A stretch of DNA of 64,000 bases, taken from Coriobacteriia bacterium. Lineage in GTDB: Bacteria; Actinomycetota; Coriobacteriia; WRKU01; WQUG01. The stretch is taken from assembly GCA_009784345.1 (NCBI GenBank), contig WRBW01000001.1, positions 32,971-96,970 on the forward strand, read 5' to 3'. Made by a program: the position numbers and the translations under genes. The notes below the pieces were generated by a model that was given only the letters and a program-made list of their open reading frames with translations, was not told where the DNA came from and did no database searches. Shown here piece by piece: positions 24,851 to 47,452 of the stretch; within the stretch, counting starts at the first letter, position 1, and every line of letters starts with the position of its first letter.

Positions 24851-24926
24851 TGGTGGAGGCTAGGGGGATCGAACCCCTGACCTCTGGCTTGCAAAGCCAG
24901 CGCTCTCCCAGCTGAGCTAAGCCCCC
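24851..24926 (-). tRNA. tRNA-Ala (anticodon TGC), CCA encoded
   Basis: Reverse complement GGGGGCTTAGCTCAGCTGGGAGAGCGCTGGCTTTGCAAGCCAGAGGTCAGGGGTTCGATCCCCCTAGCCTCCACCA. The G3:U70 identity pair is present. Confidence 0.9.
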
Positions 24927-24980
24927 ACGGATAACAGCGACGTACTACTATACAGCATTTCAGAAAAAGGTCAAATTTTC

Positions 24981-26396
24981 TTACGACACCTCGCGAATAT
25001 GTGCCGATATTTCTCGCTCTCGACCATTCTCAGTCGGTGGTGGAATGGTAGTAACATAGCCCAGTACGAACAGAGCAATGGGGGCAAACACTGCTTGATC
25101 AAAAACAACTTCAAACAGCCCGAAGGATAAAAGCGCAATGGCAAGAAGCTTCGGAAAAAACGGAGCCATTTTTGACCGCGGTTTCCATAATAGCCAAACC
25201 AAGAACCATAGGTAGAGTGCAACTGCTACTGGACCTCCAGTTATCCACCTATTGAGAACTTCATTATGTGCATGTCCATTGCCGTCAAGCAAAAACCCTG
25301 ATGGTTGCCAGCTTCCTAAGGGTTCTGAGGCGATTCTTTCAAGAGCCTGAAACCACAAGTCTCCTCGCCCAGACGTAAACTCGTCTACGAATAGAAACAC
25401 CCTCTTTTCGTAACTCGTAAGCTGATCCAGTTGCACTTCATAATCTGACTTTGGTTGCTCTACATAAGAAGTGACACTCTCTTCTGGTATGCTCTCAGAA
25501 GAAGAGGGGATATTTCTAACTACATTATTTGATTGTACAAATACACCGACCCCCCCAATTAGCACAACAATTAAAGCGTTAACAATCAGGAAAGTCTTGT
25601 AGTTTATTTTGAACCAAGAAACCAATTCTCCTCTCTTTGCCAGAAGAATTATGAAGGCCATCAGAACTAAAGCAAAGGCAAAAAAAGCTGTACGCGTTCC
25701 TGTTAAAAAGCATAAGAATACACTCATGACTACTACAGCAGAGCGAAGAAGAACGAGCTTTTTGCTCGCCAGTGCCCAGCAAAATGCAATGAGGGCAGTA
25801 AAAGCATAAAGAGAAGGATAGTGAGCAAGTCCCTGTGCTCGGACGGGCTCAGCCTCATTCCATATGTAAACAGAATGAAGCGTTAGGCTGATGTCATTAA
25901 CACGACCAATCCATGCCCCAATAGGATTATGAAATCCACCCAAATGAAAATATTCGCCCAGCGCCAAAGTGAGCATGCCCCCCAAAGCCACAACAAGGGC
26001 AATTCCCAATTTCTTGTTTCCCAAAACAGATATTCTTGTTCCGATGTACCATGCACACAGTACTGATAACTGGGTCAAGAAAAAATTAATCCACCATCGT
26101 TGCAGCCCAATTGAGACATCGGCGACGGTCAATCCGTTGATTACTATATAGGAGACTACAACAAACAAAATATTAAAAGACAAAAATGCAATTAGTGGAA
26201 TATTGGTGCGAAACAGCTTGGTGACCTGCCTGAATAGTTCTCTTTCCTTGATGGCGTAAGCAACAAGAAGGCCTGCAATAAATACCACAAGGGGGGCAGC
26301 GAAAAAGAGTCGGGGTGCACCCGACAAAAAGAACAAATGTCTTTGCGGAATCACCATGAGCACAACAATGGAGACAAAGCTCAACAAGTAGAGCAA
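24981..26396 (-). CDS. O-antigen ligase / Wzy-type polysaccharide polymerase family membrane protein
   Basis: About 12 TM segments; Wzy_C-like segment LTGTRTAFFAFALVLMAFIIL; first gene of the low-GC block. Confidence 0.55.
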   Translation of the reverse strand: MLYLLSFVSIVVLMVIPQRHLFFLSGAPRLFFAAPLVVFIAGLLVAYAIKERELFRQVTKLFRTNIPLIAFLSFNILFVVVSYIVINGLTVADVSIGLQRWWINFFLTQLSVLCAWYIGTRISVLGNKKLGIALVVALGGMLTLALGEYFHLGGFHNPIGAWIGRVNDISLTLHSVYIWNEAEPVRAQGLAHYPSLYAFTALIAFCWALASKKLVLLRSAVVVMSVFLCFLTGTRTAFFAFALVLMAFIILLAKRGELVSWFKINYKTFLIVNALIVVLIGGVGVFVQSNNVVRNIPSSSESIPEESVTSYVEQPKSDYEVQLDQLTSYEKRVFLFVDEFTSGRGDLWFQALERIASEPLGSWQPSGFLLDGNGHAHNEVLNRWITGGPVAVALYLWFLVWLLWKPRSKMAPFFPKLLAIALLSFGLFEVVFDQAVFAPIALFVLGYVTTIPPPTENGREREISAHIREVS

Positions 26397-26511
26397 GCCT
26401 CTTATTTTATTATCGAGCTTATAATCCTGAATGAGTGTTTCCTAACCGAAATAGTCACGTGTCAGTCAGCTAGTATACTCGCAAGAAGGAGTTTACATCA
26501 AGCAAGTCGAA

Positions 26512-29508
26512 TCAACACAGGGTACCAATATCATGCAACAATTTCTCGCTTAAAGATGACATTCCTGGATTTGCCTGAATAAAATTGTCATAGTTTGCTA
26601 CAAGTCCCTGATAAATCCAGTCTTGATCAATCATTTCTCGGATGAGCTCACTCTGCTGCTCAATTGAAATTGAGCTACTTAAGTAATAATTCATTTGATG
26701 AACAAGCATTGACAGCACATCATATCTGAGCGGAAGCAACCTACCACTTTTCTCGAGTATCTCACGAAGTCTGCTGATAGCATCGATGGCACTAGTCTTT
26801 TTTCCTACCATGCCCCCAGTAAGACTTTCATCGTTATTTGCGCGATAAGTAATCAGTCTGCGATCAAGGGTCGTTATTTTGCCCGCGAGTGCAAGCGCAG
26901 AGTAGGTAAAGCTGATGTCCTCACAATTGGGTAATGATTGAAATCTGAGGCCCTTGGACCTCACGAATGAACTCTTGAACAATTTATTCCACGGGGCAGG
27001 ATTCGTGATTCTGAACAACCCGTTGTGGACATCGCGATAGTCGAAAACATCAAGCTCGGGCAAAAATTTCTGATTCAAATAGTGCGTTGGCTCACTTATC
27101 TCCCGACTTGCCTGGTCGAATATCTTACCGTCGAAGATGGTCACATCGGCATTTGTTGCACAAGCCTTTGAAAACACTTCTTCAATCGTCGTATCCGCGA
27201 TGAAATCATCGGCATCCAAGAAGAGGAGATACCTTCCTCTCGCCATATCCATGCCGCGATTACGAGCGGGTCCAGCAGTTTGATTCTTTTGTGTAACATA
27301 GGAGAGTCTTGAGTACTTACTTGAATATTCAGCTAATATCTGGACCGAATCGTCAGTGCTTCCATCATCAACACAAATGACTTCGAAATTTTGAAAAGAC
27401 TGTCCTATGACGCTGTCAAGTGTCTGCTCGAGATACTTGGCAGAGTTAAATACAGGTATGATGACCGATACATCGAAAGCAATGTTCCTTGCAACATCAA
27501 GAGATTGAACAAAATCCTCACTGAGTTCATTCGTTTTAATAAGCTGCTTATCGTTCATGCTGGATAGCGCGCTGCCTTCTTGAACAAGTGCAATAATCAT
27601 AGATCCACTTGCCAAGTAATCAGCATATTTTGAAGGTAAATATGGATTATTCTCTCCAGAGTATTCAGTATCATTCAGGAAGAGAAAGTCCATTCTGGCA
27701 GCCAGGCTCAGCATTTCCAAGTACCCAACCGAGTCGTTAGTTTTCAATTGCGAATTTTCAAAGCCCATTCGCTTAATGTCATCACGAATACCGTCATAAC
27801 TGGACTTGAAATAGTCGGGCGTGAAAACATGCAGAACAACTCTTGGGTTTTTTAGCAATTCAATCATGGGGTCATGACGCCTATTAGTGTAGAAGGAGCC
27901 GAAGTAGGCAATGTTTATTTTGTCAGCATCGAGCGGATACGCAGGTGTCACGGCCCCAACAAATGCACTGTCGATTTGCGGGTGAGGCCAAATTAAACTG
28001 CGCTTCATCACTGACTCTTTTTCTTCACTGCTTAACGCACTCTTATCCAGCATTAGTTTCTGCTGGTTACTATTGGTAAAAATAATTTTATCAGCGCGTT
28101 CATAAACAGCTGCTTCAACTTCTTGATAACACTGACGCTTCGGGCGTCCCTGTACATCTAACGACAGGGGATCCGAGAATTCAGCGAACCACGTGGCTTC
28201 TGGGTAGAGCTCTTTATACTTGTATGCCGCAAGGTGTGATCCCGACATTTGTGATCGCGAATAAACATATGGCGTCTCATCGAAAATCGCTCTTTCAAAT
28301 GCTCGCTGCCCCCACCATTCGAAGTCGCCAATTTTTTTAGTATTGACCTCTGACTTTTGATCATACTGGTGCTGTGCATAAATCAAGTCGTACATAGGGT
28401 CTGTGCTTCGAAGTGAAGACCAGTCCTGTTTATACACGTTCCAGCCCACAATTTCGCCTACATAGTCTGATATCTGTGAGAGCCTCCGCGAGGCGACATA
28501 TGCAGAAGGGTCTGCCTCGGGTGCAAAGAGCTGGCAAAAGACGGTACCGCGGCTAGATGCAAATCTAGCTCGGTTTATAAGCAGCGCCTTGTCGCTTCTC
28601 AGCCTTCCCCGGACCAGTCTGGCACTCTCTTGGGTTTCATCGCGCGCGCAATAGTCTTCAACCTGCAAGCTTTGGGCTTTAATCTGCCTTATCAAGAATT
28701 TCTTGTGGGTTACGCTTGTGCTGCCATCCAACACTAATGTCGAGAGGTATTTTAAGATATCTAATTTGTCGGTAACATAATCTAGGAGTTGTGAAGGTTC
28801 TGGGCGAGACATGCTCTTCTCCATGACTCTTCGCATATATGCTTCATTGGACTCTTGGCTCACAAACGCAAGTTCTCCACTTATATTTCCAAAATTTTCT
28901 GCCCAAAAGAGAATGTCTTCTGAATGTCTGACGTACTCGGGAATGCGATAGAAAGCGGTTCTCATGAGATCAGTTCGGATGAGCTTGCTGGTACAATTGC
29001 CAAAGAGCGACGTTGCCCACAGGTAATCAGTTGAATACTGCTCCTTTTGCTTTTCAAGGCTTCGATTAATGTATGTATCTGTTTCAATCTGCCCACTATC
29101 AACATCGAAGAGCTTCCCGAAGATAATGCTTACATCTTTCATAGCGAGCTCAAGCATTTCCTGCAAATAGCCCCTGCTAAGCCAATCGTCATCATCTAGA
29201 AAAGTCACATAGTTCTTACTGGCATGCTGGACGCCCACATTCCTTGCGTGCCCAAGACCCGCCTGCTGGGTGTAGATTACACTAACGTTAGAAGTAGAAT
29301 TGTACTCACTTTGGAGGTGCTCAAAATGGATGCGGTCACTTCCGTTTACCACAATGAGCAATTCAACGAGTGATTCATCTATAGTCTGACCCAGTACAGA
29401 ATCAATTGCCTCTTGCAAAGTTGGAGTCACTTTCCAAGTGGCAAGTACAACAGTCACCCCCAGATCCAGACCTTCAACTGGCCCGGGCTCATTCTTTGAT
29501 GCTATCAT
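26512..29508 (-). CDS. three-domain glycosyltransferase: GT2 - uncharacterised 380-aa domain (X) - GT2
   Basis: N-terminal GT2 (VVLATWK...DDDD), then the X domain (FCQLFAPEADPSAYVASRRL...NPYLPSKYADYLASGSMIIALV), then a second GT2 (VSVIIPVFNSAKYLEQTLDSVIGQSF..VICVDDGSTDDS). Start at the internal ATG overlaps the upstream stop by 1 nt. Confidence 0.7.
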   Translation of the reverse strand: MIASKNEPGPVEGLDLGVTVVLATWKVTPTLQEAIDSVLGQTIDESLVELLIVVNGSDRIHFEHLQSEYNSTSNVSVIYTQQAGLGHARNVGVQHASKNYVTFLDDDDWLSRGYLQEMLELAMKDVSIIFGKLFDVDSGQIETDTYINRSLEKQKEQYSTDYLWATSLFGNCTSKLIRTDLMRTAFYRIPEYVRHSEDILFWAENFGNISGELAFVSQESNEAYMRRVMEKSMSRPEPSQLLDYVTDKLDILKYLSTLVLDGSTSVTHKKFLIRQIKAQSLQVEDYCARDETQESARLVRGRLRSDKALLINRARFASSRGTVFCQLFAPEADPSAYVASRRLSQISDYVGEIVGWNVYKQDWSSLRSTDPMYDLIYAQHQYDQKSEVNTKKIGDFEWWGQRAFERAIFDETPYVYSRSQMSGSHLAAYKYKELYPEATWFAEFSDPLSLDVQGRPKRQCYQEVEAAVYERADKIIFTNSNQQKLMLDKSALSSEEKESVMKRSLIWPHPQIDSAFVGAVTPAYPLDADKINIAYFGSFYTNRRHDPMIELLKNPRVVLHVFTPDYFKSSYDGIRDDIKRMGFENSQLKTNDSVGYLEMLSLAARMDFLFLNDTEYSGENNPYLPSKYADYLASGSMIIALVQEGSALSSMNDKQLIKTNELSEDFVQSLDVARNIAFDVSVIIPVFNSAKYLEQTLDSVIGQSFQNFEVICVDDGSTDDSVQILAEYSSKYSRLSYVTQKNQTAGPARNRGMDMARGRYLLFLDADDFIADTTIEEVFSKACATNADVTIFDGKIFDQASREISEPTHYLNQKFLPELDVFDYRDVHNGLFRITNPAPWNKLFKSSFVRSKGLRFQSLPNCEDISFTYSALALAGKITTLDRRLITYRANNDESLTGGMVGKKTSAIDAISRLREILEKSGRLLPLRYDVLSMLVHQMNYYLSSSISIEQQSELIREMIDQDWIYQGLVANYDNFIQANPGMSSLSEKLLHDIGTLC

Positions 29509-29807
29509 TACTTCCGCCTTTTTTTGACTGCGGCGGTTGCTCTCTTGCCAAGCATGCAAATTCTTCGCGCAACTCTGGTCAAGAAAAAAGATTCGAAAGA
29601 GGCAAGTTTCTTTGTCTCAATACGCAAACTGCGTTTTAGACTCTCAATTTCTTCATCCTGGCGAGCAATGTCACTCAAGTAGTTCTTGCATGCAATCTCT
29701 GCAGCCTCAATGACTCTTTGGCATTTTTCTAACTCTTGAGCACAGTCGCGCTGCTTAAGACAGGGGGTTTCGACTGCACAAGAGCGTATGTGGTCGTGAT
29801 TGCTCAT
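29508..29807 (-). CDS. coiled-coil protein with basic C-terminal tail (CC module 1)
   Basis: 99 aa, ...QRVIEAAEIACKNYLSDIARQDEEIESLKRSL...RVARRICMLGKRATAAVKKRRK. Translationally coupled (TAATG) to the GT2-X-GT2 gene. Paralogous to 39164..39643 and to the C-terminus of the TagD-like protein. Confidence 0.45.
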   Translation of the reverse strand: MSNHDHIRSCAVETPCLKQRDCAQELEKCQRVIEAAEIACKNYLSDIARQDEEIESLKRSLRIETKKLASFESFFLTRVARRICMLGKRATAAVKKRRK

Positions 29808-29849: not shown

Positions 29850-30557
29850 TCACGAGCCCAGATGCTTCACAAAGACATACTCGATTTTTATTGGCAGGTA
29901 CCCCATCTTTAAGTGGGCTCTAACCGAACCGGGATTATTTGTCGAAACTGACGTAGTTAGCGTTTGACACCCCTTTCCTCGAGCATATAAGATGCCGCTA
30001 CTAATGATGAGATATGACAGTCGCTTGCCTGCGAATTCGGGGTAGATTCCTACAAGATAACTGTGGCACGAATCCTTGCCAGTCTGTCGCAAAAGCGCGA
30101 AACCAACAGTTTCTCCGTCAGATTCGAGCGCGAGCAATTCCCCCCCCCGGTTCTTCTCATCATCAATCCAGTTAACGTATCGTTGCGCAGACTGCCCTTT
30201 CGAAAAGTGCGGATCCCTCGAAATCCGATCTGTCCCAAATAATCCAGCCTTGATAACTTTGTCGAGGTTATCCTCTTCCTCCTCGGTCATAATGTGGTAT
30301 TCGGCTGAACGAAAGTTCTCTGATTCATCTGTCGCAATCTCCAGCGTCATTAGCGCCTCAGAGAGATAGAATCCTCTTTTATGTAGAACTTCGGACAGCT
30401 CCACTTGCTCAGCAGGTAGCTTAACTACCTGATAGTCTGCATCGATGGTACTAAGATTTTCGGCCAGACTTCCAGCAGTGTCACTCGCCTCAATTATTAT
30501 TTCCTGCACTTTACATCCAAGATTCTCATACTCCCAAACAGCATCAATGACCCGCAT
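29850..30557 (-). CDS. GNAT-family N-acetyltransferase (WecD/dTDP-fucosamine acetyltransferase-like)
   Basis: 235 aa. C-terminal GNAT core FALLRQTGKDSCHSYLVGIYPEFAGKRLSYLII. Sits between sugar aminotransferase and rml genes. Confidence 0.55.
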   Translation of the reverse strand: MRVIDAVWEYENLGCKVQEIIIEASDTAGSLAENLSTIDADYQVVKLPAEQVELSEVLHKRGFYLSEALMTLEIATDESENFRSAEYHIMTEEEEDNLDKVIKAGLFGTDRISRDPHFSKGQSAQRYVNWIDDEKNRGGELLALESDGETVGFALLRQTGKDSCHSYLVGIYPEFAGKRLSYLIISSGILYARGKGCQTLTTSVSTNNPGSVRAHLKMGYLPIKIEYVFVKHLGS

Positions 30558-31611: not shown

Positions 31612-32970
31612 CTACTCTTCTTTTAAGGTAATCGCTTCAACACCCATGTATTGCGCCAGACCCTGATTCCTCCAAAAGTCTGGATCGCCTGTTATATCAC
31701 CCAATTGGTATCCTGCACGATACTTTGTTTTAGGGTTGGGAATGGCACTTACTTGGATGTCAGTTTTTCCCATCTCCTTTTGAACTTGAATGTACTTCAT
31801 GCGGGTTCGTTCTGCGCGCCACGCTTGGGCAGTGTCCACTCCGGCCGGTATTACTGAAAACACAAATAACAAAGCGAGTACCAAGACCGTACTCTTTCCA
31901 AGAAATTTCGACAGCTGAAGATCGCTTTCAAACAAGCGTGCGAGAAGGACTGTTGCCGCAGCTACCAAGAAGAAAGTTCCGAAGCTATAGGTGCGCAGCG
32001 CTACCGTGCTAGCAGGTGCAAAAATCATTACGTAGGTTACTGCAAAGGCTGCAGCAACAAAGCAGCCAGCAACATAGAGTGACTCCCTGTTAATTCTCAT
32101 AGTAGTGCAAGCAGCGTAAAGCACAACTATTAGAATTAGTAGCCATTTCAATTCTGAAAAATATACCTCACTTATACTTTGAAATTGCACTATAGTGCTC
32201 ATTGAAATCAAAGAATTGGTGTTGATATACTCTGCACGACTTGCATTCCCTGGTGAGGCCACAACCGCAACCAAACCTCCCAAGCAGCCAATCCATCCTG
32301 CCAGCATCCAAAGCTGTATGCTCTCCCGATTTTTCGCGAACGCATAAATCACAAAGAGGCTGATGATTACCAACGCGCCTCCGGAGCCATTTTGAGCCGC
32401 GTTTCCGGCAACAAGCCCAACCAAAAATATAAGGGGAACGCTCACAACCGCAGGTAAATTTAAGGGTTTATTAAGGAATACCGAGCGATGAAATAGCCAA
32501 ATTAGCACAAAGATTTGCGCAGCGCCCCATAAATATATGATTGCGCCCAGCTGCCACAGAATTATCTGCCCATACACTGGCATAAATACCCAAATCAGCA
32601 GTGATATACTCAGGAAAACCCAGCTATTGTATCTCTGCTTTGGTGCCGCAATTGCATACAAAAGAAATACAAGTGCCACGTAGACACCTGTGTTAATGAT
32701 GTTGAAAAGCGCTTTAGGCACAAGGAAGGAGCCAAAGCCGAACAACGAATTGAATAGTCGACCATCCCAATTGAAATAAAAGCTCCATGCATCACTGATG
32801 GCCTTGCTTAGTGTACTCGCCATTGATGCACGAACCCAGTCATCAGCCACAAGAGGTGTAAGTGCGTTAAACACAAACATCCCAGCAACAACAAAGGCCA
32901 CGCTAAAGAAAAAGACCAGTTTGTCCTTTGTAAAACTGCTCGAATGTTCTTGAATGTCTTCCATGACCAC
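31612..32970 (-). CDS. polytopic membrane protein (candidate GT-C glycosyltransferase partner of GtrB-like enzyme)
   Basis: 452 aa, at least 10 TM, no cytoplasmic domain. Position immediately downstream of the GtrB-like gene. Confidence 0.45.
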   Translation of the reverse strand: MVMEDIQEHSSSFTKDKLVFFFSVAFVVAGMFVFNALTPLVADDWVRASMASTLSKAISDAWSFYFNWDGRLFNSLFGFGSFLVPKALFNIINTGVYVALVFLLYAIAAPKQRYNSWVFLSISLLIWVFMPVYGQIILWQLGAIIYLWGAAQIFVLIWLFHRSVFLNKPLNLPAVVSVPLIFLVGLVAGNAAQNGSGGALVIISLFVIYAFAKNRESIQLWMLAGWIGCLGGLVAVVASPGNASRAEYINTNSLISMSTIVQFQSISEVYFSELKWLLILIVVLYAACTTMRINRESLYVAGCFVAAAFAVTYVMIFAPASTVALRTYSFGTFFLVAAATVLLARLFESDLQLSKFLGKSTVLVLALLFVFSVIPAGVDTAQAWRAERTRMKYIQVQKEMGKTDIQVSAIPNPKTKYRAGYQLGDITGDPDFWRNQGLAQYMGVEAITLKEE

Positions 32971-33037: not shown

Positions 33038-34198
33038 CTAGCCTTCAACCCAGATAGCTGAAGAAGGATGTGCTTTAGCGAAGCTCATTATAGCATCGCA
33101 CACTTTGGATATGTCCTCGATGCTTAAGCCATAAAACAGGGGTAAGCGCAAAATTCTTTCACTTTCCCTTGTTGTATGCACATCTACGCCATGAAATCTA
33201 CCCAGAAGCCTCCCGGCGGGTGCTGAATGTAAGGGAACATAGTGAAAGACCGCTAATATACCCCTTTTCTTCAGCCAACTTATTAACAAGCTCCGCACAC
33301 CAATATCCCTTACCTTAATGTAAAACATATGGGCATTGTGCTCACACTCTGCTGGTATAGTGGGCATTTCAAGAAAACACGCATCAGACAAGGGCTTCAA
33401 CTGTTCATAGTACGATTTCCAAGACTCTAGCCTATTCTGATTTATCTTTTCTGCGTCAATAAGCTGTGCACAAAGAAGTGCTGCATTAAGGTCGCTTGGG
33501 AGATAAGATGATCCGATGTCAACCCAAGTGTATTTATCTACCTGTCCTCTGAGGAATTGGCTCCTGTCTGTTCCTTTTTCACGAATTATTTCAGCCCTCT
33601 TATAAAGCTCGTGATCCTGTATGACAATTGCCCCGCCCTCACCCATACTATAATTCTTTGTTTCGTGGAAACTATAGCAACCTATATCGCCATAGGTGCC
33701 CAAAGGCTTCCCATGGTATTTGGCCATCATAGCCTGTGCAGCATCCTCGATCACAAACAAATTATGATCAGAGGCAATCTTCATAATTGATTTCATTTCG
33801 CATCCAACGCCCGCATAGTGTACAGGAGCGATTGCCCTAGTCTTTTCAGTAATTGCCTCTTCGATCTTTGACTCATCAATATTCATAGTGTCAGGTCGAA
33901 TGTCCACAAAAACAATTTTTGCACCACGCAGAGCAAAAGCATTGGCGGTTGACGAAAAGGTGTACGACGGCATAATCACTTCGTCACCAGTCTTGATATC
34001 AGCTAGCATGGCTCCCATTTCGAGAGCATGAGTCCCTGACGTGGTTAGTAGTGCCCGCCCATTTTCACCGTATTCGTTTAGCCACTCAGTGCACTGTTTG
34101 GTAAAAGGTCCATCTCCACAGAGCTTGTTGCCAGCAATTGCCTGCGCAACAAAATCGTACTCTGTACCAAGAAGTGGTGGCCGATTAAAAGGAATCAT
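33038..34198 (-). CDS. DegT/DnrJ/EryC1-family sugar aminotransferase (WecE-like dTDP-4-keto-6-deoxyhexose 4-aminotransferase)
   Basis: MIPFNRPPLLGTEYDFVAQAIAGNKLCGDGPFTKQCTEWL closely resembles the WecE N-terminus. PLP-lysine region ...SFHETKNYSMGEGG. Confidence 0.8.
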   Translation of the reverse strand: MIPFNRPPLLGTEYDFVAQAIAGNKLCGDGPFTKQCTEWLNEYGENGRALLTTSGTHALEMGAMLADIKTGDEVIMPSYTFSSTANAFALRGAKIVFVDIRPDTMNIDESKIEEAITEKTRAIAPVHYAGVGCEMKSIMKIASDHNLFVIEDAAQAMMAKYHGKPLGTYGDIGCYSFHETKNYSMGEGGAIVIQDHELYKRAEIIREKGTDRSQFLRGQVDKYTWVDIGSSYLPSDLNAALLCAQLIDAEKINQNRLESWKSYYEQLKPLSDACFLEMPTIPAECEHNAHMFYIKVRDIGVRSLLISWLKKRGILAVFHYVPLHSAPAGRLLGRFHGVDVHTTRESERILRLPLFYGLSIEDISKVCDAIMSFAKAHPSSAIWVEG

Positions 34199-36956: not shown

Positions 36957-37961
36957 ATGAAGATGCTCGTCACTGGAGCTGCCGGTTTTATTGGCTCAAA
37001 TTTCGTGTTCCACCAGTTGAAGAAGCGTCCCAAGACCCAAATCGTTGGCTTGGACGCACTCACATATGCAGGCAATTATGAAACACTCAAGCCACTAGAA
37101 GGACACAGCCAGTTTCGCTTTATAAAATCTGACATTACAGACAAAAGCTCTATTGATGTGCTGTTTGATACCGAGAGATTTGATGTAGTTGTAAATTTCG
37201 CTGCCGAATCACATGTAGACAGATCGATTGAAAACCCATCGATTTTTCTAAGCACGAACATCATTGGTACTCAGGTACTAATGGACGCTGCACTGCGCTA
37301 CGATGTAAGGCGCTTCCACCAAATTTCGACCGATGAGGTTTACGGTGATCTGCCTCTGGAACGACCCGATTTATTGTTTACAGAAAGTACGCCTTTACAC
37401 ACATCAAGCCCCTATTCAGCATCAAAGGCTAGCGCTGACCTGCTGGCTCAAGCTTATTATCGCACCTTTAATTTGCCATTGAGTATTTCGCGGTGCTCGA
37501 ATAACTATGGCCCTTATCACTTCCCGGAAAAACTTATACCTCTGGCCATAACTAACGCGCTGGCAGACAAGCCGATCCCTGTGTATGGTACAGGTGAAAA
37601 TGTTCGCGACTGGCTATATGTCGAAGACCACTGTGAGGCGATAGACTGCATCATTACAAGGGCGGATTCAGGTTCCGTCTTCAATGTTGGTGGACATAAT
37701 GAAATGCGAAATATCGATATCGTGAAGCTCATTCTTGACAAGCTTCAAAAGCCTGAATCCCTGATTGAATATGTTTCAGACCGCAAGGGTCATGATCTGC
37801 GCTACGCAATTGACCCCTCCAAAATTGAAAACGAGCTGAGCTGGACCCCGAAGACACAATTCGCAGAGGGTCTCGACAGAACAATTGAATGGTACCTGCG
37901 CAATGAAACTTGGTGGTCGCGTATTCTAACTGGTGAATACCGGAAAAGCCTACCGCGTTAA
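36957..37961 (+). CDS. rmlB: dTDP-glucose 4,6-dehydratase
   Basis: MKMLVTGAAGFIGSNF Rossmann motif, YSASKASAD catalytic YxxxK; 334 aa. Confidence 0.9.
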   Translation: MKMLVTGAAGFIGSNFVFHQLKKRPKTQIVGLDALTYAGNYETLKPLEGHSQFRFIKSDITDKSSIDVLFDTERFDVVVNFAAESHVDRSIENPSIFLSTNIIGTQVLMDAALRYDVRRFHQISTDEVYGDLPLERPDLLFTESTPLHTSSPYSASKASADLLAQAYYRTFNLPLSISRCSNNYGPYHFPEKLIPLAITNALADKPIPVYGTGENVRDWLYVEDHCEAIDCIITRADSGSVFNVGGHNEMRNIDIVKLILDKLQKPESLIEYVSDRKGHDLRYAIDPSKIENELSWTPKTQFAEGLDRTIEWYLRNETWWSRILTGEYRKSLPR

Positions 37962-39164: not shown

Positions 39165-39643
39165 TATGCACTAATAATGCTTTGGTACTCTCGCAGCAAC
39201 CTGCGCCGGACGCGCAGTGCAAAAGTCACCGGTGGCAAAAATCTATATCTTTTGGCGATCTTCCTAAGATAAAATCCGCGTGGGAGATCTGGCAGCCCTG
39301 GAACATTGTCACTTGGTATGTTGAGCTCTTTGCGGAGCCTGATATTCTCCCTTCTCAGTTCCCTTAATTCCAAATCATTATGGAACTGAGCTTGCCGAGC
39401 CGCCTCTACAATTCGTTCCATTTGGTCAATTTTTGAATCCTTGATAGATACCTCTTCCTCGAGGCGTCTGGTTAGTGCTGTAAGCTGCGTAACGTTTTCT
39501 CTGGGATCAAGCGACTCGCAACATTCTTGCAGACCCTCCCGAGCCTGCACATTTGACCCGTCAAAGCGAGTAACTGTATCTTCATAAAGATGTTTCATAT
39601 TCTGATTATGATACCATTTACCAGCATCAAACAGATTCTTCAC
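39164..39643 (-). CDS. coiled-coil protein with basic C-terminal tail (CC module 2)
   Basis: 159 aa, ...RIVEAARQAQFHNDLELRELRRENIRLRKEL...LRKIAKRYRFLPPVTFALRVRRRLLREY. Translationally coupled to the X-domain gene. Confidence 0.45.
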   Translation of the reverse strand: MKNLFDAGKWYHNQNMKHLYEDTVTRFDGSNVQAREGLQECCESLDPRENVTQLTALTRRLEEEVSIKDSKIDQMERIVEAARQAQFHNDLELRELRRENIRLRKELNIPSDNVPGLPDLPRGFYLRKIAKRYRFLPPVTFALRVRRRLLREYQSIISA

Positions 39644-39669: not shown

Positions 39670-41682
39670 ATGAACCAATTACAAGGCGGGAATAGTCTTC
39701 CCCTTGGCGTGAGCGTTATCGTTACAACATGGAAGGAAGTTCCCAGCATCTACGAGGCCGTTGCCTCGGTAGTAAACCAGAGTCTCAGTCAGTCCAAGAT
39801 AGAAATTATTATTGTCGTTAATGGAAGTAATGAACAATACTTTGAAAAGTTAGAGTCTACCTATCAAGAATCTGAAAACGTTAGGGTGCTTTACACGTCC
39901 CGCTTGGGAGCCAGTCATGCATGCAACCTTGGAGTTGCTGAAGCATCCATGCGCTATCTAACCTTTCTTGACGACGACGACCAGCTTACAGAAGGCTACT
40001 TGGCCGAACTGCTTAATCTTGACGAGCCTGAAGTGAGCATTATTATGGGAAAGCTCTCAGACTTTGAGGCAGGCAGCTTATCGCGTGACACATACATAAA
40101 CCGAGCAATTCAATCAAGCAGCAAGAGGAGAACAAGCGATTATTTGTCAATAAGTTCACTCTTTGCGAACAAGACAGCAAAGCTTATCAGAACCAATCTA
40201 ATGAAAGCACGCTTTTTGCCCTTCCCAGAAGAATTCTCTCACAGCATAGATGTAGTCTTTTGGTGCCGCAATTTTGGTCGTCTGACTGGCTTGGTTGCCG
40301 TGGCTTCTGCGCGCACTAAAGAGACTTACATAAGGAAAAAGACATCGGACAGCTTGTCCCGACCAGACTCTGCAAAACTCATGCAATACACTGATGATAA
40401 GCTGGCCATGATTAAGGAGTTTTCCGAGCTCTATTTAGATGGCAACACAAGGCCTTCTCACAAAACTTTCTTGCGAAACGTCATGAGTCGTCAGTCACTG
40501 TTTCTAAAGGACTACACGGAAAGTGACCCTAGTGGACAGTGCCTGCAATTGATTCAAGAGCGACTGCTTGCAGACGATGGACTGTTGATAAAGCGTTCGC
40601 TGTTTGCACAGGTCAAAGGTTTAGCCTTCTGTCAATTGTTTTTACCTGAAGCAAGTCCGTCATCCTATGTTTCCTCACGACGTCTTTGGCAACTTTCAAA
40701 GTATCTCGGAAAAGTAATCGACTGGACAGTGCTGAAGCAAGATCTTTCTGAGCGTCGCCACGAGGATAGAGCTTATTACTCTGGCTTTGCCCAATATTTT
40801 TGCGGTAATGTAAAGAATGTTTTCGTTAGAAAGCCTAATGACTTCATGCTGTGGGGACAAAATGCCTTCGAATCAGCCTTATTTTACAAAGTTCCTTACG
40901 TGTATTCTCGCGCACAGTTTCCAGGCTCACATGTTGCCGCTTCAAAATATAAGGCACTGTATCCTGAGACCACCTGGTTTGCAGAATTTTCCGATCCTCT
41001 TTCGCGCGGAACTGATGATTGCGCAAAGACTGATCTTCGGTACGAAGAAATTGAGAATTTGGTATACGATGGCGCTGATTGCATCATTTTCACCAATAAT
41101 AATCAGCGAGAATACATGCTTGGCTACTGCGGTCGATCAGATACTGAGTCCATACGAGAGCGAAGCCTTGTCTGGAACCACACCGTCATAGATAAGGCAT
41201 TTGTAGGCTCTGTCCAAGTGAACTATGCTCTGAATGAAGAGCAGATAAATGTCGCATACTTTGGCTCTTTCTATATGAATCGCGGTCATGAGAACATGCT
41301 TCGGCTACTAAATAATCCCAGGGTCGTGCTACACATATTTACACCCGACTACTTCAAATCAAACTACGGCCAGATTGATGATGACATTAAGCGGATGGGT
41401 GTTGATCCGGGACGCCTTCGTAGAAATGACGCTGTTAGCTATATGGAGATGCTGGGGCTTGCACAGCGCATGGATTATTTATATCTGGGTGATGTTTCAT
41501 TTCCAGGCACAGTCAACCCATACTTACCCTCCAAGTACTCTGATTACGTTGCTAGCGGAAGCAAAATTATTGCCGTAGTCGAACCAGGCAGCCCTCTTTC
41601 GCAGCAAAGATGCGATCAGCTTATCAAACTTCAGAGCCTAAATGATGATTTTATTGCCACCCTAGCAAAGCCCATCAGCTAG
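39670..41682 (+). CDS. GT2 glycosyltransferase fused to X domain
   Basis: N-terminal GT2 (VSVIVTTWKEVPSIYEAVASVVNQS..FLDDDD), then the X domain (LAFCQLFLPEASPSSYVSSRRL ... NPYLPSKYSDYVASGSKIIAV); 670 aa. Confidence 0.7.
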   Translation: MNQLQGGNSLPLGVSVIVTTWKEVPSIYEAVASVVNQSLSQSKIEIIIVVNGSNEQYFEKLESTYQESENVRVLYTSRLGASHACNLGVAEASMRYLTFLDDDDQLTEGYLAELLNLDEPEVSIIMGKLSDFEAGSLSRDTYINRAIQSSSKRRTSDYLSISSLFANKTAKLIRTNLMKARFLPFPEEFSHSIDVVFWCRNFGRLTGLVAVASARTKETYIRKKTSDSLSRPDSAKLMQYTDDKLAMIKEFSELYLDGNTRPSHKTFLRNVMSRQSLFLKDYTESDPSGQCLQLIQERLLADDGLLIKRSLFAQVKGLAFCQLFLPEASPSSYVSSRRLWQLSKYLGKVIDWTVLKQDLSERRHEDRAYYSGFAQYFCGNVKNVFVRKPNDFMLWGQNAFESALFYKVPYVYSRAQFPGSHVAASKYKALYPETTWFAEFSDPLSRGTDDCAKTDLRYEEIENLVYDGADCIIFTNNNQREYMLGYCGRSDTESIRERSLVWNHTVIDKAFVGSVQVNYALNEEQINVAYFGSFYMNRGHENMLRLLNNPRVVLHIFTPDYFKSNYGQIDDDIKRMGVDPGRLRRNDAVSYMEMLGLAQRMDYLYLGDVSFPGTVNPYLPSKYSDYVASGSKIIAVVEPGSPLSQQRCDQLIKLQSLNDDFIATLAKPIS

Positions 41683-41750: not shown

Positions 41751-42434
41751 CTAGCGCTTTACATACTTGCGAAGCCTTGCCCGATAACTCTTCGGAACCA
41801 TCCTGCGAACCGCAAACACAAGAGCGGTCTTAATGCTTTTTAAAGCCTCATTCCTGGAGCGCAAATAATTGATATCTTCCTCGTATCGGTTGCACGCAAT
41901 TTGCGCAGCATCAATTATCTTATTTTTTTGCTTCAGAGTTCTTTGGGCACTCGCGAGCTCTGCTGAAAGGGCTTCGACACTTCTGTACTCTGGCTCAAAA
42001 GCCGGCTGGGGCAGTACGGAATGGTCATCCTCGGGGCTTAAGAGCTTGAGCTCATCTTTGATTTGCGTTGTTGAAATGCCTTCGGTCCTGTCCAGAAAGA
42101 CGAGCTCACAAACATCTGCAAGATACTCAAATCGATCACTTCCGGCCCAGTCACCGCCCATGACGACGACATCAATGTCATTGTCTTTTACATCTTTGAT
42201 TTTTTGATTCCAATTTCTTTCTGGAATAACCTCATCAACATCACACAGAGAGAGGAGCATCTCGCGACGAACATCATAGCTGTGGTATGTTTTCTTACCC
42301 TTCTGCTCGAGATTGAATTCGTCCGTTGATAAAGCAACGGTTAAGTGGTCCCCCAGAGCACGTGCACGCTTGATAAGTCGGATATGACCATAGTGCAATA
42401 AGTCGTAAGTTCCGTATGTGAGTACTTTTTTCAC
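41751..42434 (-). CDS. tagD: glycerol-3-phosphate cytidylyltransferase with C-terminal coiled-coil/basic-tail extension (CC module 3)
   Basis: Residues 1-130 align with B. subtilis TagD (MKKVLTYGTYDLLHYGHIRLIKRA...TEGISTTQIKDEL). The roughly 95-aa extension ...KIIDAAQIACNRYEEDINYLRSRNEALKSI...AVRRMVPKSYRARLRKYVKR is paralogous to CC modules 1 and 2. Confidence 0.85.
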   Translation of the reverse strand: MKKVLTYGTYDLLHYGHIRLIKRARALGDHLTVALSTDEFNLEQKGKKTYHSYDVRREMLLSLCDVDEVIPERNWNQKIKDVKDNDIDVVVMGGDWAGSDRFEYLADVCELVFLDRTEGISTTQIKDELKLLSPEDDHSVLPQPAFEPEYRSVEALSAELASAQRTLKQKNKIIDAAQIACNRYEEDINYLRSRNEALKSIKTALVFAVRRMVPKSYRARLRKYVKR

Positions 42435-42435: not shown

Positions 42436-44598
42436 CTATCCTCTTTGCTCTAGTTTGTCACGAAGTAAGTTTATCAGCATTTGGTTGCTCTCTCTTGAAT
42501 TGCAGTATTCTCCCGTGTGGTCATCCAGACCCAATGCCTGTACTTCTGAACGAATAATTGCTTTTGCTAGGTCGCCTTCCTTTTCGAAGACTCGCTGCTT
42601 GAAAAGACCCCACATGTCCGGATAGACTCCACGGCTCTCTTCGTACTGTTCGAAATCGTTCACATAGAGATAGACTGGCTTATCGATTGTGAGAGCATCG
42701 AAAACGACAGATGAGTAATCAGAAACTATAATATCAGCGCCCAGAAGCAAGTCCTGCAGATCCATGGATGAAGTAGAGCGCTCCAAGATATCATCCTGAA
42801 AGTCGTGCCCTTTAGAGACTACGAAGTATGCGTCGCCAAGGCATTTCTGAAGCTCCTCAACATTAAGCAAGTACTGTAAGTTGCACTGTTCTGCACTCAC
42901 CTTGTAATTGTAGTCCCGCCACGTTGGTAGGTAGAGAATAATCTTTTGTTCTCCGCATGCCCCTAACATCTTTCGTAATGCGTTCCGCAATTCATGGTTG
43001 TACATGTTGGCGTTTAGGTAGTGTACACGCGGGTAACCCCAAGGCAACATCTTTGACTGTGGCATGAGAAAGCCCGTTTCGAAATAGCGCGATGCCCCCC
43101 TTGAATCGAGAAGAAAGTAATCCCACTTGAGTATATTTGCATACCTGCTTTGCTTATGACGCGGGTAATTCTGTGTTATTTCTGTTTCAGGCGAATCGAA
43201 GAGAAGCCTTTTTATGGGCGTACCATGCCAAAGCTGAATCCAAACACAGTCCGGGTGCTTCGTGATAAAGCTCGGCACCCACGATTCTGCAATAATTATT
43301 CGCGCTCTGAACACTGCCCTGAGGAGCTCCTTTGACTGCGGCTGAAGCCTGAACTGCTTGGGGACTCTCTCATCATCGGTAACAAAGTAGAGATTCGTAA
43401 ACCCTTTAAGACGTAAATCGTCGAAGAGGTACTTCGAGTTCCCTGAATACTGGAAGTCGAAGCCCAAAAAGACGACTGTTTTCTCCCGAGCGAAAGACTG
43501 TGCTTTCTTAGCTTCAAGCCTACATCGCATGAGCCAGACCATTCCGCCAAAAAAGCCACCCTTGTATCCGCTAAAATCAAGTTGTAGTACGCGCCTGATT
43601 GCTCTTTTGGCAGCAACCGATAATCGACGAGCTCTGCACACCAATATGAACAAAATTGCCCGCTGAGGATTCAGGAGCCTAATCTTTGCGCATCTCCTCA
43701 TAAAAGCATTGTCTTGAAGCAGGGATTTTTGTGTCAATGGAGCGATAGCCTCCAGGTAGTCACGAGCGAAGCTGCCCTTCAACCGACCTGGAACTCTGAG
43801 CTGGTAGTAGAGTGCAAATTTCATGCTGAGCGATGTGAGCAAGTCGCTCGTTTCCGAAAGCTTCTCTCTTTGAGCAATTCTTACTGCGTCACTAACTGCT
43901 GCTATGAAACCCTTTGCATGAACATCGGTCTGATACTTTGTTTTTGTAATTGAGTACTTGTTTACTCGAATAGTATAGAGAGGAGATTGAATAATTGATA
44001 TTCTCTCAGCTGAAATAACTGATTTTACCCAAAATGGAATATCTTCATAGAGGTAGCCTACGCCAAATTGGATATCGTGCGAGACAAGAAACCGCCTTGA
44101 ATAGAGCTTGTTGACCGTGAAGTATGTTTCTAGGCTGAGCAACTCAAGGCATTCTTTCCCTTGCAGGAGTTGAGATCTATTGCACAAATCATTACTGAGG
44201 TAGCGAATAGACTGAGATTCTTCGTAATAGTACTTCCAATCAAAGAACACAAAGTCTGATCTGTCTTCCTTAATGCGCTCATAGGCGAGTTCGAGGCAGA
44301 CGGGCTCGATTGTATCGTCAGCATCAAGGAAGAGAATATAATCGCCTCGTGCTTGCGTAATACCCAAATTGCGAACGAAGCCTAAGCCACAGTTCTCAAT
44401 GGTCATTGTCCTGAAACAAGTGTACATTTCTTCATACGACTTCAGAATGGACTCAGTCGAATCTGTCGAGCCGTCATTAATTGCCAATATCTCGAAGCTC
44501 TTGAAGCCTTGACCAAGTACCGAGTCGATGCATTGGGACAAATATTTTTCTGCATTATAGCAAGGAATAATTACGCTAATTTCTGGCTTCACGTTCAA
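42436..44598 (-). CDS. bifunctional GT2 glycosyltransferase / CDP-glycerol glycerophosphotransferase (TagF/TagB-like)
   Basis: N-terminal GT2 (ISVIIPCYNAEKYLSQCIDSVLGQ..LDADD). C-terminal TagF-type domain with the PTWR motif (KIILYLPTWRDYNYK) and DYSSVVFD; 720 aa. Confidence 0.75.
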   Translation of the reverse strand: MNVKPEISVIIPCYNAEKYLSQCIDSVLGQGFKSFEILAINDGSTDSTESILKSYEEMYTCFRTMTIENCGLGFVRNLGITQARGDYILFLDADDTIEPVCLELAYERIKEDRSDFVFFDWKYYYEESQSIRYLSNDLCNRSQLLQGKECLELLSLETYFTVNKLYSRRFLVSHDIQFGVGYLYEDIPFWVKSVISAERISIIQSPLYTIRVNKYSITKTKYQTDVHAKGFIAAVSDAVRIAQREKLSETSDLLTSLSMKFALYYQLRVPGRLKGSFARDYLEAIAPLTQKSLLQDNAFMRRCAKIRLLNPQRAILFILVCRARRLSVAAKRAIRRVLQLDFSGYKGGFFGGMVWLMRCRLEAKKAQSFAREKTVVFLGFDFQYSGNSKYLFDDLRLKGFTNLYFVTDDERVPKQFRLQPQSKELLRAVFRARIIIAESWVPSFITKHPDCVWIQLWHGTPIKRLLFDSPETEITQNYPRHKQSRYANILKWDYFLLDSRGASRYFETGFLMPQSKMLPWGYPRVHYLNANMYNHELRNALRKMLGACGEQKIILYLPTWRDYNYKVSAEQCNLQYLLNVEELQKCLGDAYFVVSKGHDFQDDILERSTSSMDLQDLLLGADIIVSDYSSVVFDALTIDKPVYLYVNDFEQYEESRGVYPDMWGLFKQRVFEKEGDLAKAIIRSEVQALGLDDHTGEYCNSRESNQMLINLLRDKLEQRG

Positions 44599-45737: not shown

Positions 45738-46499
45738 CTAATTATGTTTCTCATAAGTCTCGATAGCTGTTTCCACATCACCGTCATAGATGAGCTCACC
45801 TTTTTTGATGTAAAGAACTCTGCTACACAACTCTTCGACGCTGGTCATCGAGTGGCTGACGTAAAGTAAGGTAACGCCACTTTGGGCTAATTCATTAATT
45901 TTCTTGTTGCATTTTTCGCGAAACTTTGCATCGCCCACACTGAGTGCCTCATCAACCACGAGGATATCGGGATCTGAGTTTGCGCTAATGGCAAATCCCA
46001 AGCGCATCTTCATGCCGCTTGAATAGGTGAAGAGCGGTTGATCAATGTATTCGCCCAGTTCTGCAAACTCTATGATGAGTGTCTCCATCTGCTCTATTTC
46101 ATCTTTGGAGTAGCCCATTATAAAGCCCTTGAGATAGATGTTTTCGCGACCCGTCATTTCATTTGAGAATCCTGCAGTCAGCTCGAGGAGAGCCGCAACA
46201 TTGCCGTTTACCTCTACTTCCCCGGACGTAGGGAAGGTAACACCCGTGACGATTTTGAGCAAGGTCGATTTGCCGGCACCGTTTCGACCAATAATTCCCA
46301 CGGCTTCACCGCGACCGACCTCAAAATTGATATCTTTGAGCGCATCATGCCTCTTCAGTTTTTTACTCTTATGAAACAGTGCAGCAAATCGCTCTCTGTC
46401 AGACTTATACAGAATGTATTCCTTATTGACGTTGCTTATCTTCACAGCTGTCTTGCTCTGACGCGCGAGGTCTTTTTGCTTGTCGTGATTCTTCATCAT
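45738..46499 (-). CDS. ABC exporter ATP-binding protein (TagH/Wzt-like, polysaccharide/teichoic-acid export)
   Basis: Walker A GRNGAGKST, signature YSSGMKMRLGFA, Walker B ILVVDEALSVGD; 253 aa. Confidence 0.8.
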   Translation of the reverse strand: MMKNHDKQKDLARQSKTAVKISNVNKEYILYKSDRERFAALFHKSKKLKRHDALKDINFEVGRGEAVGIIGRNGAGKSTLLKIVTGVTFPTSGEVEVNGNVAALLELTAGFSNEMTGRENIYLKGFIMGYSKDEIEQMETLIIEFAELGEYIDQPLFTYSSGMKMRLGFAISANSDPDILVVDEALSVGDAKFREKCNKKINELAQSGVTLLYVSHSMTSVEELCSRVLYIKKGELIYDGDVETAIETYEKHN

Positions 46500-47293
46500 A
46501 ATACGTCTGCCATATCTTTGCGTAGGCGCTTATAGTTGTACACACCAAAGGCGATAGTTATTGCCAAAATTCCCAGAAATACATACACTTCGATGGGTCT
46601 CTCCCATATCCATTCGTGATAGAGGAATGTCTTTCGGTACCCGTTCACGAAAAAGGTCACTGGGTTGAATATCATGAGCTTCTTTAACCAGGGCAAGCCT
46701 AAGTCATAACTATTCCAAAGAATGCCAGAAAGCCAGAAAACGGCAGTCATCACAGATGAAATTAAGTTTTGCAAATCCCTTGAGTACACAACCCATGGCG
46801 CCAATGTCCACGTTACAGCCAGAAAGAAGATAAACATAAGGGGGAAATAGATAAAAAACTGCAAATGATAGAGAGAGGGAGTATTACCCATGGCAACCAA
46901 GTATAAGTACACGCATGCTAGAAGCATCAAATGCACTATTGCATATGAGATTGCAGAAAAAGTCATGATAGTTGATACGGGAAAATGTATCTTAGTCACA
47001 TACTGTGAGTTCTGACGAATTGTTCGAGCCCCTTGATTCAGCATGTCGCGCATGAAATACCAAGCTACAAGTCCGACCATGAGGAATTGAAAGAAGGGAA
47101 CGCCGTTTATATCTCCACCAGCACGCAGCCCAATGGTGAAAACAAACCAGAAAAGCATCAGCGTCGTAAAGGGACCTACAATTGCCCAAGCTGACCCCAA
47201 GAATGAGCCTTTGAACCTCTTTTTTATGTCGAGCCTGGCGAGCTTCCAGATTTGACCCCAAAAGCCTCTATGTTCTTGAATGATTGAGGGCAC
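46496..47293 (-). CDS. ABC-2 type exporter permease (TagG/Wzm-like)
   Basis: 265 aa, 6 TM. ATGA overlap with the ATPase gene, the classic TagGH/Wzm-Wzt arrangement. Confidence 0.75.
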   Translation of the reverse strand: MPSIIQEHRGFWGQIWKLARLDIKKRFKGSFLGSAWAIVGPFTTLMLFWFVFTIGLRAGGDINGVPFFQFLMVGLVAWYFMRDMLNQGARTIRQNSQYVTKIHFPVSTIMTFSAISYAIVHLMLLACVYLYLVAMGNTPSLYHLQFFIYFPLMFIFFLAVTWTLAPWVVYSRDLQNLISSVMTAVFWLSGILWNSYDLGLPWLKKLMIFNPVTFFVNGYRKTFLYHEWIWERPIEVYVFLGILAITIAFGVYNYKRLRKDMADVL

Positions 47294-47368
47294 TACCCAT
47301 TACCTTTCTGTCAAAACACCAGCTGACTATTATACTCTTTTCACTTTACGCTCGTTGTTTGGTTGTGG

Positions 47369-47406
47369 AGGGCGTCCATAGCTGCTGGTTTGGACGCGCT
47401 CCCCCA
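47369..47406. terminator. hairpin (GGAGGGCGTCCA..12 nt..TGGACGCGCTCCCC) at right edge of low-GC block
   Basis: A 12-bp imperfect inverted repeat downstream of the 47453 gene and upstream of the exporter operon. The stem contains the GCGTCCA core of the over-represented motif. Confidence 0.5.
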
Positions 47407-47452
47407 CGGTATTTTCATCACGCGCTCGTTGTCAGGTGCTGGCTGTTAGATG

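Follow-up and report, generated by a model that had tools for sequence, protein, structure and literature searches.

The stretch analysed here, called the window below, comprises 64,000 nt of contig WRBW01000001.1 (assembly GCA_009784345.1) from an uncultured termite-gut Coriobacteriia bacterium (Actinomycetota), which is known from metagenomes alone; the termite-gut samples containing contigs of this species are part of a study of metagenome-assembled genomes from higher termites (PMC7024585). Within the window, a block of 19 genes at 24,981–47,293 differs sharply from its surroundings in base composition and carries a gene set of the teichoic-acid type, and its junctions recur in related lineages while its content varies between them. 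The block is probably this organism's allele of a surface-glycopolymer locus that is conserved in position and variable in content, extending from nth and an ATP-binding cassette (ABC) transporter on one side to tRNA-Ala and a P-type ATPase gene on the other. Cassettes at this locus would be exchanged by recombination in the flanks, the present one having come most likely from a lower-GC member or neighbour of the clade.

A low-GC block at a conserved site

The coding sequences of the block have a GC content of 0.453, and of 0.470 at third codon positions (GC3), as opposed to 0.570 and 0.648 in 20 flanking genes. When GC is read in 1-kb windows, the region from 25 to 47 kb ranges from 0.419 to 0.468 (mean 0.451) and 35 flanking windows, taken from 0–24 kb and 48–59 kb, range from 0.483 to 0.613 (mean 0.563), with zero overlap between the two sets (Mann-Whitney p = 3e-10). 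Likewise, GC3 lies between 0.42 and 0.53 in all block genes and between 0.54 and 0.75 in all flanking genes, and a leave-one-out classifier based on codon usage placed 36 of 37 genes in the right set. The GC steps are located at ~25.0 kb and at 47.3–47.45 kb. Both sliding-window GC and codon usage, the two composition checks suggested with the original prediction, thus bear out the drop in GC that it had placed between tRNA-Ala and about 47.37 kb, as well as the composition foreign to the host that it had read from this drop. The flanks are indeed richer in GC than the block, at about 53–61% (mean 56–57%) instead of the claimed 58–60%. A hairpin near 47.37 kb, proposed as the right boundary, is present with a stem of ~14 bp (47362–47404); it has no U-tail, folds no better than shuffled sequences (z = -1.2) and was rejected as a boundary signal.

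The site was compared with termite-gut Coriobacteriia metagenomic contigs, using the ABC permease of the right flank as an unbiased anchor, which revealed six lineages with permeases 57–78% identical to that of the window. No close species was found: a scan of genome contigs with the P-type ATPase returned just distant termite-gut Coriobacteriia (65–68% identity) followed by Firmicutes, and a scan of metagenomes likewise found no close species. On the left side, the relatives keep the synteny of the ATPase, tRNA-Ile, MerR, MurB, CNNM and RCC1 genes at 65–76% amino-acid identity.

The content next to the right anchor differs from lineage to lineage. In L172–L174 (78% identity at the anchor), nth, the ABC ATPase and the ABC permease are followed by TagG, TagH, two TagF genes and a GT2 gene. 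In L175 (62%), an S8 peptidase gene is followed by TagG, TagH, phosphoenolpyruvate (PEP) mutase and phosphonate genes and a TagF fusion; positions 14736–21659 of this contig encode the PEP mutase, a phosphonopyruvate decarboxylase and an Fe-ADH/TagF/MptE fusion, a content of the phosphonate type. L177 (57%) and L179 (60%) share a TagF-GT4 fusion, a Wzm/Wzt(Wzt_C) exporter and LicD, to which L179 adds a Wzy_C protein; an octopine-dehydrogenase-like gene accompanies the fusion, LicD and the Wzt_C-type exporter in both (L177 11692–21650 and L179 11704–21650). L183 (61%), which is of the same type as L092, has surface proteins, ArfB, RCC1, LytTR and tRNA-Ala and no glycan cluster, and L181 (62%) shows no exporter within the 3.2 kb that are readable. 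The surface-polymer diversity predicted for the site is therefore evident, with relatives that hold a phosphonate-type cluster, a LicD-type cluster or none.

The opposite end of the locus is represented by L169, whose contig end reads TagF, GT2-LicD, GT2-X, GT2-GT2, Wzy_C, tRNA-Ala and cytochrome c552 (X denotes a domain treated below). Its GT2-X and GT2-GT2 proteins are orthologues of the GT2-X-GT2 protein of the window (58% and 51% identity, respectively), and its Wzy_C protein is 48% identical to that of the window, stands at the locus end as it does there, and also adjoins tRNA-Ala, across a 55-nt spacer with a conserved tRNA promoter. L092 in turn preserves the ATPase/tRNA-Ile/tRNA-Ala side. 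Judging from these gene orders, both locus ends are conserved in position across the clade. Upstream of the ATPase, L089 (38–7069) and L096 carry genes for an RHS-repeat protein, an Abi_2 protein, a GFO/IDH oxidoreductase and a cytochrome c552 (NrfA-like), and no glycan cluster; the ATPase side holding these RHS and Abi_2 genes appears to be a general variable region.

The block had originally been taken for an island inserted beside tRNA-Ala, that is, a foreign teichoic-acid pathway recently integrated in a high-GC host. A strong compositional break with sharp edges, a tRNA gene at one boundary and the lack of a glycan cluster between the same anchors in L092 and L183 all speak for such an event. 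However, Pfam scans and precomputed Pfam tables reveal no integrase, recombinase or transposase among the 19 block genes, and a comparison of 24780–25010 with 47250–47470 on both strands yields no att-like direct repeat of tRNA sequence at the distal boundary, the longest word common to the two segments being a single 9-mer. Furthermore, the block adjoins the 5′ promoter side of tRNA-Ala, while the 3′ end of the tRNA points to the ATPase; the 54-nt spacer on the block side (24927–24980) contains a TTGAC-17-TATAGT promoter that is conserved in L169. Nor is the site free of homologous genes in relatives, since four of the six lineages have, next to this anchor, a cluster that includes TagF and an ABC exporter, with TagG and TagH orthologous at ~70% identity in two of these lineages, and L169 has the same junction of Wzy_C with tRNA-Ala. 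The insertion of an island at tRNA-Ala is therefore largely refuted and must be regarded as very improbable. The comparison with relatives upheld the expected variability, with a content that differs and a cluster that is absent in some, and it placed this variability at a site of conserved position instead of an island. Because a homologous locus occupies the same anchor in relatives and L169 shares the junction with tRNA-Ala, the site itself is likely ancestral and just the cassette laterally exchanged, which leaves part of the claimed horizontal acquisition standing. Low GC next to a tRNA gene is, as this case cautions, insufficient to call an integrative island.

Exchange of the cassette has also to be weighed against pure vertical inheritance, by which the cluster would have occupied the site since the clade ancestor and would owe its low GC and fast divergence to forces acting on the locus itself, for instance diversifying selection or a codon preference biased towards AT in membrane and glycosyltransferase genes of weak expression. 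The conservation of the site and of both end genes agrees with this, as does the identity of the window's TagG (67–71%) and TagH (70–72%) to those of L172 and L175, which is like the divergence of the flanks from the window (63–82% for the flank proteins); cluster GC is moreover below flank GC in five of five relatives, by 0.055–0.083, the gap in the window being 0.117. Between L172 and L175, however, TagG and TagH are just 71–72% identical at an identity of 80–89% for nth and the cation ATPase, and are thus far more diverged than their flanks. L177 and L179 hold a different exporter class (35–49% identity), so that two non-orthologous classes occupy one site, and the lineages have entirely different biosynthetic genes (phosphonate, LicD and Fuc4NAc types). 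In a rough neighbour-joining tree, L181 and L183, neither of which shows a cluster, fall among the carriers. The GC3 gap between cluster and flank amounts to 0.18 in the window and 0.03–0.09 in relatives, and the codon choice of the block reaches a log-likelihood per codon of -1.16 to -1.18 on the core and cluster genes of relatives and of -1.28 on its own flanks; a cluster with GC3 of 0.47, close to the genomes of relatives, between flanks with 0.65 is hard to explain by a shared mutational regime. Vertical inheritance without any exchange is thus an unlikely account, and recombination with a lower-GC relative probably brought in the current cassette.

Several points weigh against a laterally exchanged cassette at a conserved locus. 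No relative contig spans both junctions, most are cut inside the cluster and all are metagenomic. Contigs of the same species, retrieved by look-ups with RmlA, nth and MurB, are all 99.6–100% identical to the window, which makes variation within the species invisible. The tree was built from three proteins by neighbour joining with a midpoint root. A donor search with RmlA identified none, the best non-self matches being 80% and 74% identical on short contigs and the next ~70–72% (the named ones including Clostridia and Anaerovoracaceae); RmlA is too highly conserved to tell donors apart. Finally, the steady low GC could reflect locus-specific selection or mutation bias under vertical descent.

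The locus resembles the O-antigen and capsule loci of enterobacteria and pneumococci in its conserved anchors, its variable content, its presence or absence among relatives and its low GC, and also in the explanation by lateral replacement, which together with low GC is documented for O-antigen clusters (PMC3715488). In contrast to those loci, the variation seen here separates lineages with 57–78% identity in the anchor permease rather than serotypes within a species, and the organism is Gram-positive with a chemistry of the teichoic-acid type.

The predicted glycopolymer pathway

The genes of the block, with their anchors and further features of the window, are listed in Table 1. From their family assignments, the block is predicted to encode a coherent teichoic-acid-like cell-wall glycopolymer pathway.

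Table 1. Genes of the glycopolymer block, its anchors and other features of the window, with the main basis of each assignment.
Feature	Position	Strand	Basis
RCC1/haem-motif secreted protein, 976 aa	14837–17767	-	weak Pfam matches Cytochrome_C7 and MtrC/MtrF domain
tRNA-Ile(GAU), after P-type ATPase	22086–22162		ARAGORN/Rfam scan of window
P-type ATPase, left anchor, flanking core gene	22259..24658	-	Pfam E1-E2_ATPase and Hydrolase; GC3 0.71
tRNA-Ala(UGC)	24851–24926	-	ARAGORN, Rfam; 5′ end and promoter face cluster
Wzy_C membrane protein (O-antigen ligase/polymerase-like), last locus gene	24981..26396	-	PF04932 40 bits, cut-off 31.7
GT2 - X domain (GT-B fold) - GT2 glycosyltransferase	26512..29559	-	Pfam: two GT2 stretches
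99-aa coiled-coil protein, basic tail	29508..29807	-	gene call in public assemblies; no Pfam match
GNAT N-acetyltransferase, distantly WecD-like	29850..30557	-	Pfam Acetyltransf_1; WecD equivalog 44 bits, cut-off 219
GtrB/ArnC/PgfS-like polyprenyl-phosphate glycosyltransferase, GT2 with C-terminal transmembrane helices	30544..31548	-	Pfam GT2; NCBIfam
DUF6056/GT_STM0557_N polytopic membrane protein (GtrC-type, GT-C-like)	31612..32970	-	PF19528 308 bits, E = 1e-91, full length
WecE-type dTDP-4-keto-6-deoxyglucose 4-aminotransferase	33038..34198	-	TIGR02379 617 bits (cut-off 435); NF008687 607 bits (375)
GtrII-like membrane glucosyltransferase (GT-C-like)	34253..35971	-	PF14264 107.5 bits, cut-off 30
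RmlA, glucose-1-phosphate thymidylyltransferase	36051..36947	+	TIGR01207 461 bits, cut-off 361
RmlB, dTDP-glucose 4,6-dehydratase	36957..37961	+	TIGR01181 468 bits, cut-off 365
Stand-alone X-domain protein, 399 aa	37965..39164	-	GT-B fold by AlphaFold2 model and Foldseek
159-aa coiled-coil protein, basic C-terminus (144 aa in public assemblies)	39164..39643	-	no family match
GT2 then X domain, two-domain glycosyltransferase	39670..41682	+	Pfam GT2 at residues 15–175
TagD-like glycerol-3-phosphate cytidylyltransferase	41751..42434	-	TIGR01518 full-length, 154 bits, E = 2e-45, cut-off 165.4
TagF-type CDP-glycerol glycerophosphotransferase, 720 aa, N-terminal GT2-like domain	42436..44598	-	PF04464 Glyphos_transf 195 bits; GT2
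GT2 glycosyltransferase, 369 aa	44595..45704	-	Pfam GT2 120 bits
TagH-like ABC exporter ATPase, short form without C-terminal domain	45738..46499	-	NCBIfam teichoic-acid export ATPases
TagG-like ABC-2 exporter permease, first locus gene	46496..47293	-	Pfam ABC2_membrane
ABC-2-type permease, right anchor	47453..49099	-	GC3 0.68
Flanking ABC transporter ATPase, right anchor	49080–50078
nth, right anchor	50197–50928
Predicted surface protein, 1596 aa	54227–59017	+	no Pfam match
PIN_3 protein	62339–62749
AAA_14 gene, truncated	62858–63292

Genes resembling tagD and tagF, which the original prediction took as signs of a polyglycerol-phosphate backbone, are present. The TagD-like protein falls somewhat short of its equivalog cut-off, and the TagF-type protein aligns end to end with Staphylococcus epidermidis TagF (3L7I; residues 6–663 vs 3–659), including the N-terminal GT2-like domain, and keeps both catalytic histidines, His444 (WHGTP) and His584. 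The 720-aa protein was also considered as an unusual GT2-TagF fusion that would build a glycosyl-glycerol phosphate (glycosyl-GroP) repeat; this was rejected, as the N-terminal domain is shared by S. epidermidis TagF. The TagF architecture of the enzyme and its pair of catalytic histidines make a poly-GroP backbone plausible, although unproven; TagO, TagA, TagB and LCP genes are not in the window. The 369-aa GT2 protein resembles, in its C-terminal part, the linker of the TagF protein.

RmlA, RmlB and WecE, all named in the original prediction, beat curated cut-offs at equivalog or subfamily level. Together with the GNAT, they are predicted to yield deoxythymidine diphosphate (dTDP)-4-acetamido-4,6-dideoxyhexose, i.e., Fuc4NAc or Qui4NAc; the GNAT corresponds to the claimed WecD-like gene but is distantly WecD-like, with a match that spans its full length at a weak score. 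The GtrB/ArnC-like protein is matched over its full length by the NCBIfam models for ArnC (181 bits) and PgfS (142 bits), at scores under the equivalog cut-offs, and would form a Gtr-type pairing, at family level, with the two GT-C-type membrane proteins. Its sugar donor may be tied to the adjacent WecE and GNAT, as gene order suggests. A GtrA-type small flippase is not found among the called locus genes, the small open reading frames (ORFs) encoding coiled-coil and not membrane proteins.

The further components expected at the locus were likewise found. It contains six GT2 domains, where four or more GT2 enzymes had been claimed, alongside three X domains, a Wzy/ligase-like protein with a Wzy_C match, and the TagG/TagH-like ABC exporter, which pairs an ABC2_membrane permease with an ATPase. 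The ATPase has its best NCBIfam matches among teichoic-acid export ATPases (261 and 224 bits; cut-offs 538 and 320, respectively), and the permease matches generic ABC-2, Wzm and KpsM models only.

A working model of the pathway would begin with an initiating transferase, encoded elsewhere, that primes undecaprenyl phosphate. GT2 and X-domain glycosyltransferases, the latter of GT-B type, may then assemble the sugar part at the cytoplasmic face, where the TagF-type enzyme would add glycerol phosphate from the cytidine diphosphate (CDP)-glycerol made by the TagD-like enzyme, and the lipid-linked polymer could be exported by the TagG/TagH-like ABC transporter. RmlA, RmlB, WecE and the GNAT would supply dTDP-Fuc4NAc or dTDP-Qui4NAc. 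The 4-acetamido-4,6-dideoxyhexose might be incorporated in the cytoplasm, or else the GtrB/ArnC-like enzyme might transfer it to undecaprenyl phosphate, in which case the two GT-C-type proteins would add the sugar outside the membrane. Attachment of the product to its final acceptor might fall to the Wzy_C protein or to an LCP enzyme encoded elsewhere. The resulting polymer may have a poly-GroP backbone, may be a poly(glycosyl-GroP) like the products of TagF-like capsule polymerases (PMC5974469), or may be a GroP-decorated polysaccharide, as in the enterococcal Epa locus (PMC7188991).

A product other than wall teichoic acid is somewhat unlikely, though it is the rival to be taken most seriously: the locus might make a lipoglycan, an S-layer or protein O-glycan, or a capsule-like poly(glycosyl-glycerol-phosphate), and the Wzy_C protein might then, with the same reserve, be a ligase or an oligosaccharyltransferase. 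The retention of a Wzy_C protein at the end of the locus, common to the window, L169 and L179, favours such a product, as do the many multi-domain glycosyltransferases, which recall TagF-like capsule polymerase systems (PMC5974469). It is further favoured by the lack of TagO/WecA, TagA, TagB and an LCP ligase among the genes of the window, although such genes may be present in other parts of the genome. Linkage-unit and LCP genes are, however, commonly found away from tag clusters; moreover, the TagF protein has the full architecture of S. epidermidis TagF and forms, with a TagGH-type exporter and the TagD-like enzyme, the classical wall-teichoic-acid trio. The proposed teichoic-acid-like pathway must nonetheless be read against the same lack of TagO/WecA, TagA, TagB, LCP and a GtrA-type flippase among the window genes, the scores of the TagD, TagH and GtrB-like matches, all under equivalog cut-offs, and a polymer chemistry that rests wholly on inference.

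Comparison with characterized systems places the locus near several of them. It shares with the tag clusters of Bacillus subtilis 168 and S. epidermidis the TagD-like enzyme, the two-domain TagF with its catalytic histidines, the TagG/TagH-like exporter and the ABC-dependent logic. It differs from them in that TagO, TagA, TagB and LCP are absent from the window and the TagD, TagH and TarF matches stay under equivalog cut-offs, while a dTDP-amino-sugar branch, six GT2 and three X domains, GT-C proteins and Wzy_C are added, in a host from the Coriobacteriia (Actinomycetota). The Epa locus is likewise a Gram-positive wall-polysaccharide locus with rml genes, an ABC exporter and many GT2 enzymes, and its variable part encodes teichoic-acid decorations (PMC7188991). 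In contrast to Epa, the locus described here contains neither rmlC nor rmlD, and therefore rhamnose is not made; its dTDP branch ends in the 4-acetamido-4,6-dideoxyhexose, and the likeness drawn here is one of gene types.

The membrane-associated and sugar-nucleotide modules have parallels of their own. The GtrB/ArnC-like enzyme beside the GtrII-like and DUF6056 (GT_STM0557_N) proteins recalls the Gtr, ArnC-ArnT and CsbB-YfhO glycosylation systems, STM0557 being a member of a Salmonella gtr operon (PMC3688519); unlike Gtr systems, the locus has two GT-C-type proteins instead of one and no GtrA-type flippase. The RmlA/RffH, RmlB/RffG, WecE and WecD branch that supplies dTDP-Fuc4NAc for enterobacterial common antigen is matched by RmlA, RmlB and WecE over their cut-offs with an adjacent GNAT. 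Here, however, the GNAT is distantly WecD-like, the C4 stereochemistry that separates Fuc4NAc from Qui4NAc is not readable from sequence, and WecF, WecG, WzxE and WzyE do not occur.

The X domain and the coiled-coil modules

Three paralogous copies of the X domain, with 50–55% mutual identity, occur in the locus; the copies in the GT2-X-GT2 protein (998 or 1015 aa, depending on the public gene call) and in the GT2-X protein are 51% and 55% identical, respectively, to the stand-alone 399-aa protein. Sequence searches gave no match in Pfam, NCBIfam or the PDB, including a profile search of the latter. With these searches blank, the fold was resolved by structure prediction and Foldseek: the AlphaFold2 model of the 399-aa protein (predicted local distance difference test 82, predicted template-modelling score 0.82) has 134 PDB matches at E <= 1e-3, the top ones being GT-B enzymes of the GT4 type, namely HepE (4xsr; E = 4.5e-12), PglA, BshA, GlgM and TarM, with TM-scores of 0.53–0.63 at ~10% sequence identity. 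The model thus points to a divergent GT-B-fold glycosyltransferase and not to a new kind of enzyme.

An initial view of X as a rare family was dropped. A word-seeded search had given 27 proteins, whereas an exhaustive search with a hidden Markov model of the X profile retrieved 2,752 representatives of 50%-identity clusters at E <= 1e-3, mostly multi-domain proteins. The domain is mostly fused to GT2 domains, and its invariant motifs are YSRS...SH, AEFSDP, FTNENQ and NPYLPSK. X is therefore unannotated yet widespread, and a family model seems warranted.

Coiled-coil modules with basic tails occur three times in the locus, as the 99-aa and the 159-aa protein, which show weak similarity to each other, and as a C-terminal extension of ~100 aa in the TagD-like protein (41751–42050, minus strand). 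Distant X-domain homologues (P0023–P0027) likewise end in coiled coils. By analogy with WbdD and WbbB, the three modules may serve as a scaffold or a chain-length ruler. It is conceivable, though doubtful, that X represents a new glycosyltransferase family for teichoic-acid-like heteropolymers and that the X proteins and coiled coils form a membrane-associated polymerase complex whose product would be an undescribed class of Coriobacteriia cell-wall polymer.

Flanking genes and the envelope of the lineage

The tRNA-Ile(GAU) and tRNA-Ala(UGC) genes are split by the P-type ATPase gene, and no rRNA lies within the window; the usual home of this tRNA pair is the rRNA spacer. The adjacency of the ATPase and tRNA-Ile is kept in relatives, and tRNA-Ala is found in just some of them. 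The 976-aa secreted protein combines an RCC1 beta-propeller with a C-terminal region that holds about six CxxCH haem motifs, and has syntenic orthologues in relatives (39–42% identity). The protein is a possible extracellular multihaem cytochrome, here of a gut bacterium that is Gram-positive. The 1596-aa predicted surface protein on the other side of the block carries a membrane anchor at its C-terminus as well as a tail rich in proline. A second low-GC stretch at 59–64 kb (GC 0.46–0.50) is unrelated to the glycan locus: it contains an HTH_3 gene with a Gp49/HigB-like toxin, a PhdYeFM antitoxin, the PIN_3 protein and the truncated AAA_14 gene, and looks like a toxin-antitoxin-rich variable or mobile region.

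The glycopolymer locus is ordinary in kind; it is the lineage that is unstudied. A full-text search for Coriobacteriia and teichoic acid found no paper with both terms in its title or abstract, and the cell-envelope glycopolymers of Coriobacteriia are almost unstudied. With this locus, a polymer of the teichoic-acid type gains a concrete genetic basis in an uncultured lineage from termite guts. Hypervariable surface-glycan sites are typical targets of phage and of host or immune selection, and the clade maintains a dedicated site of this kind.

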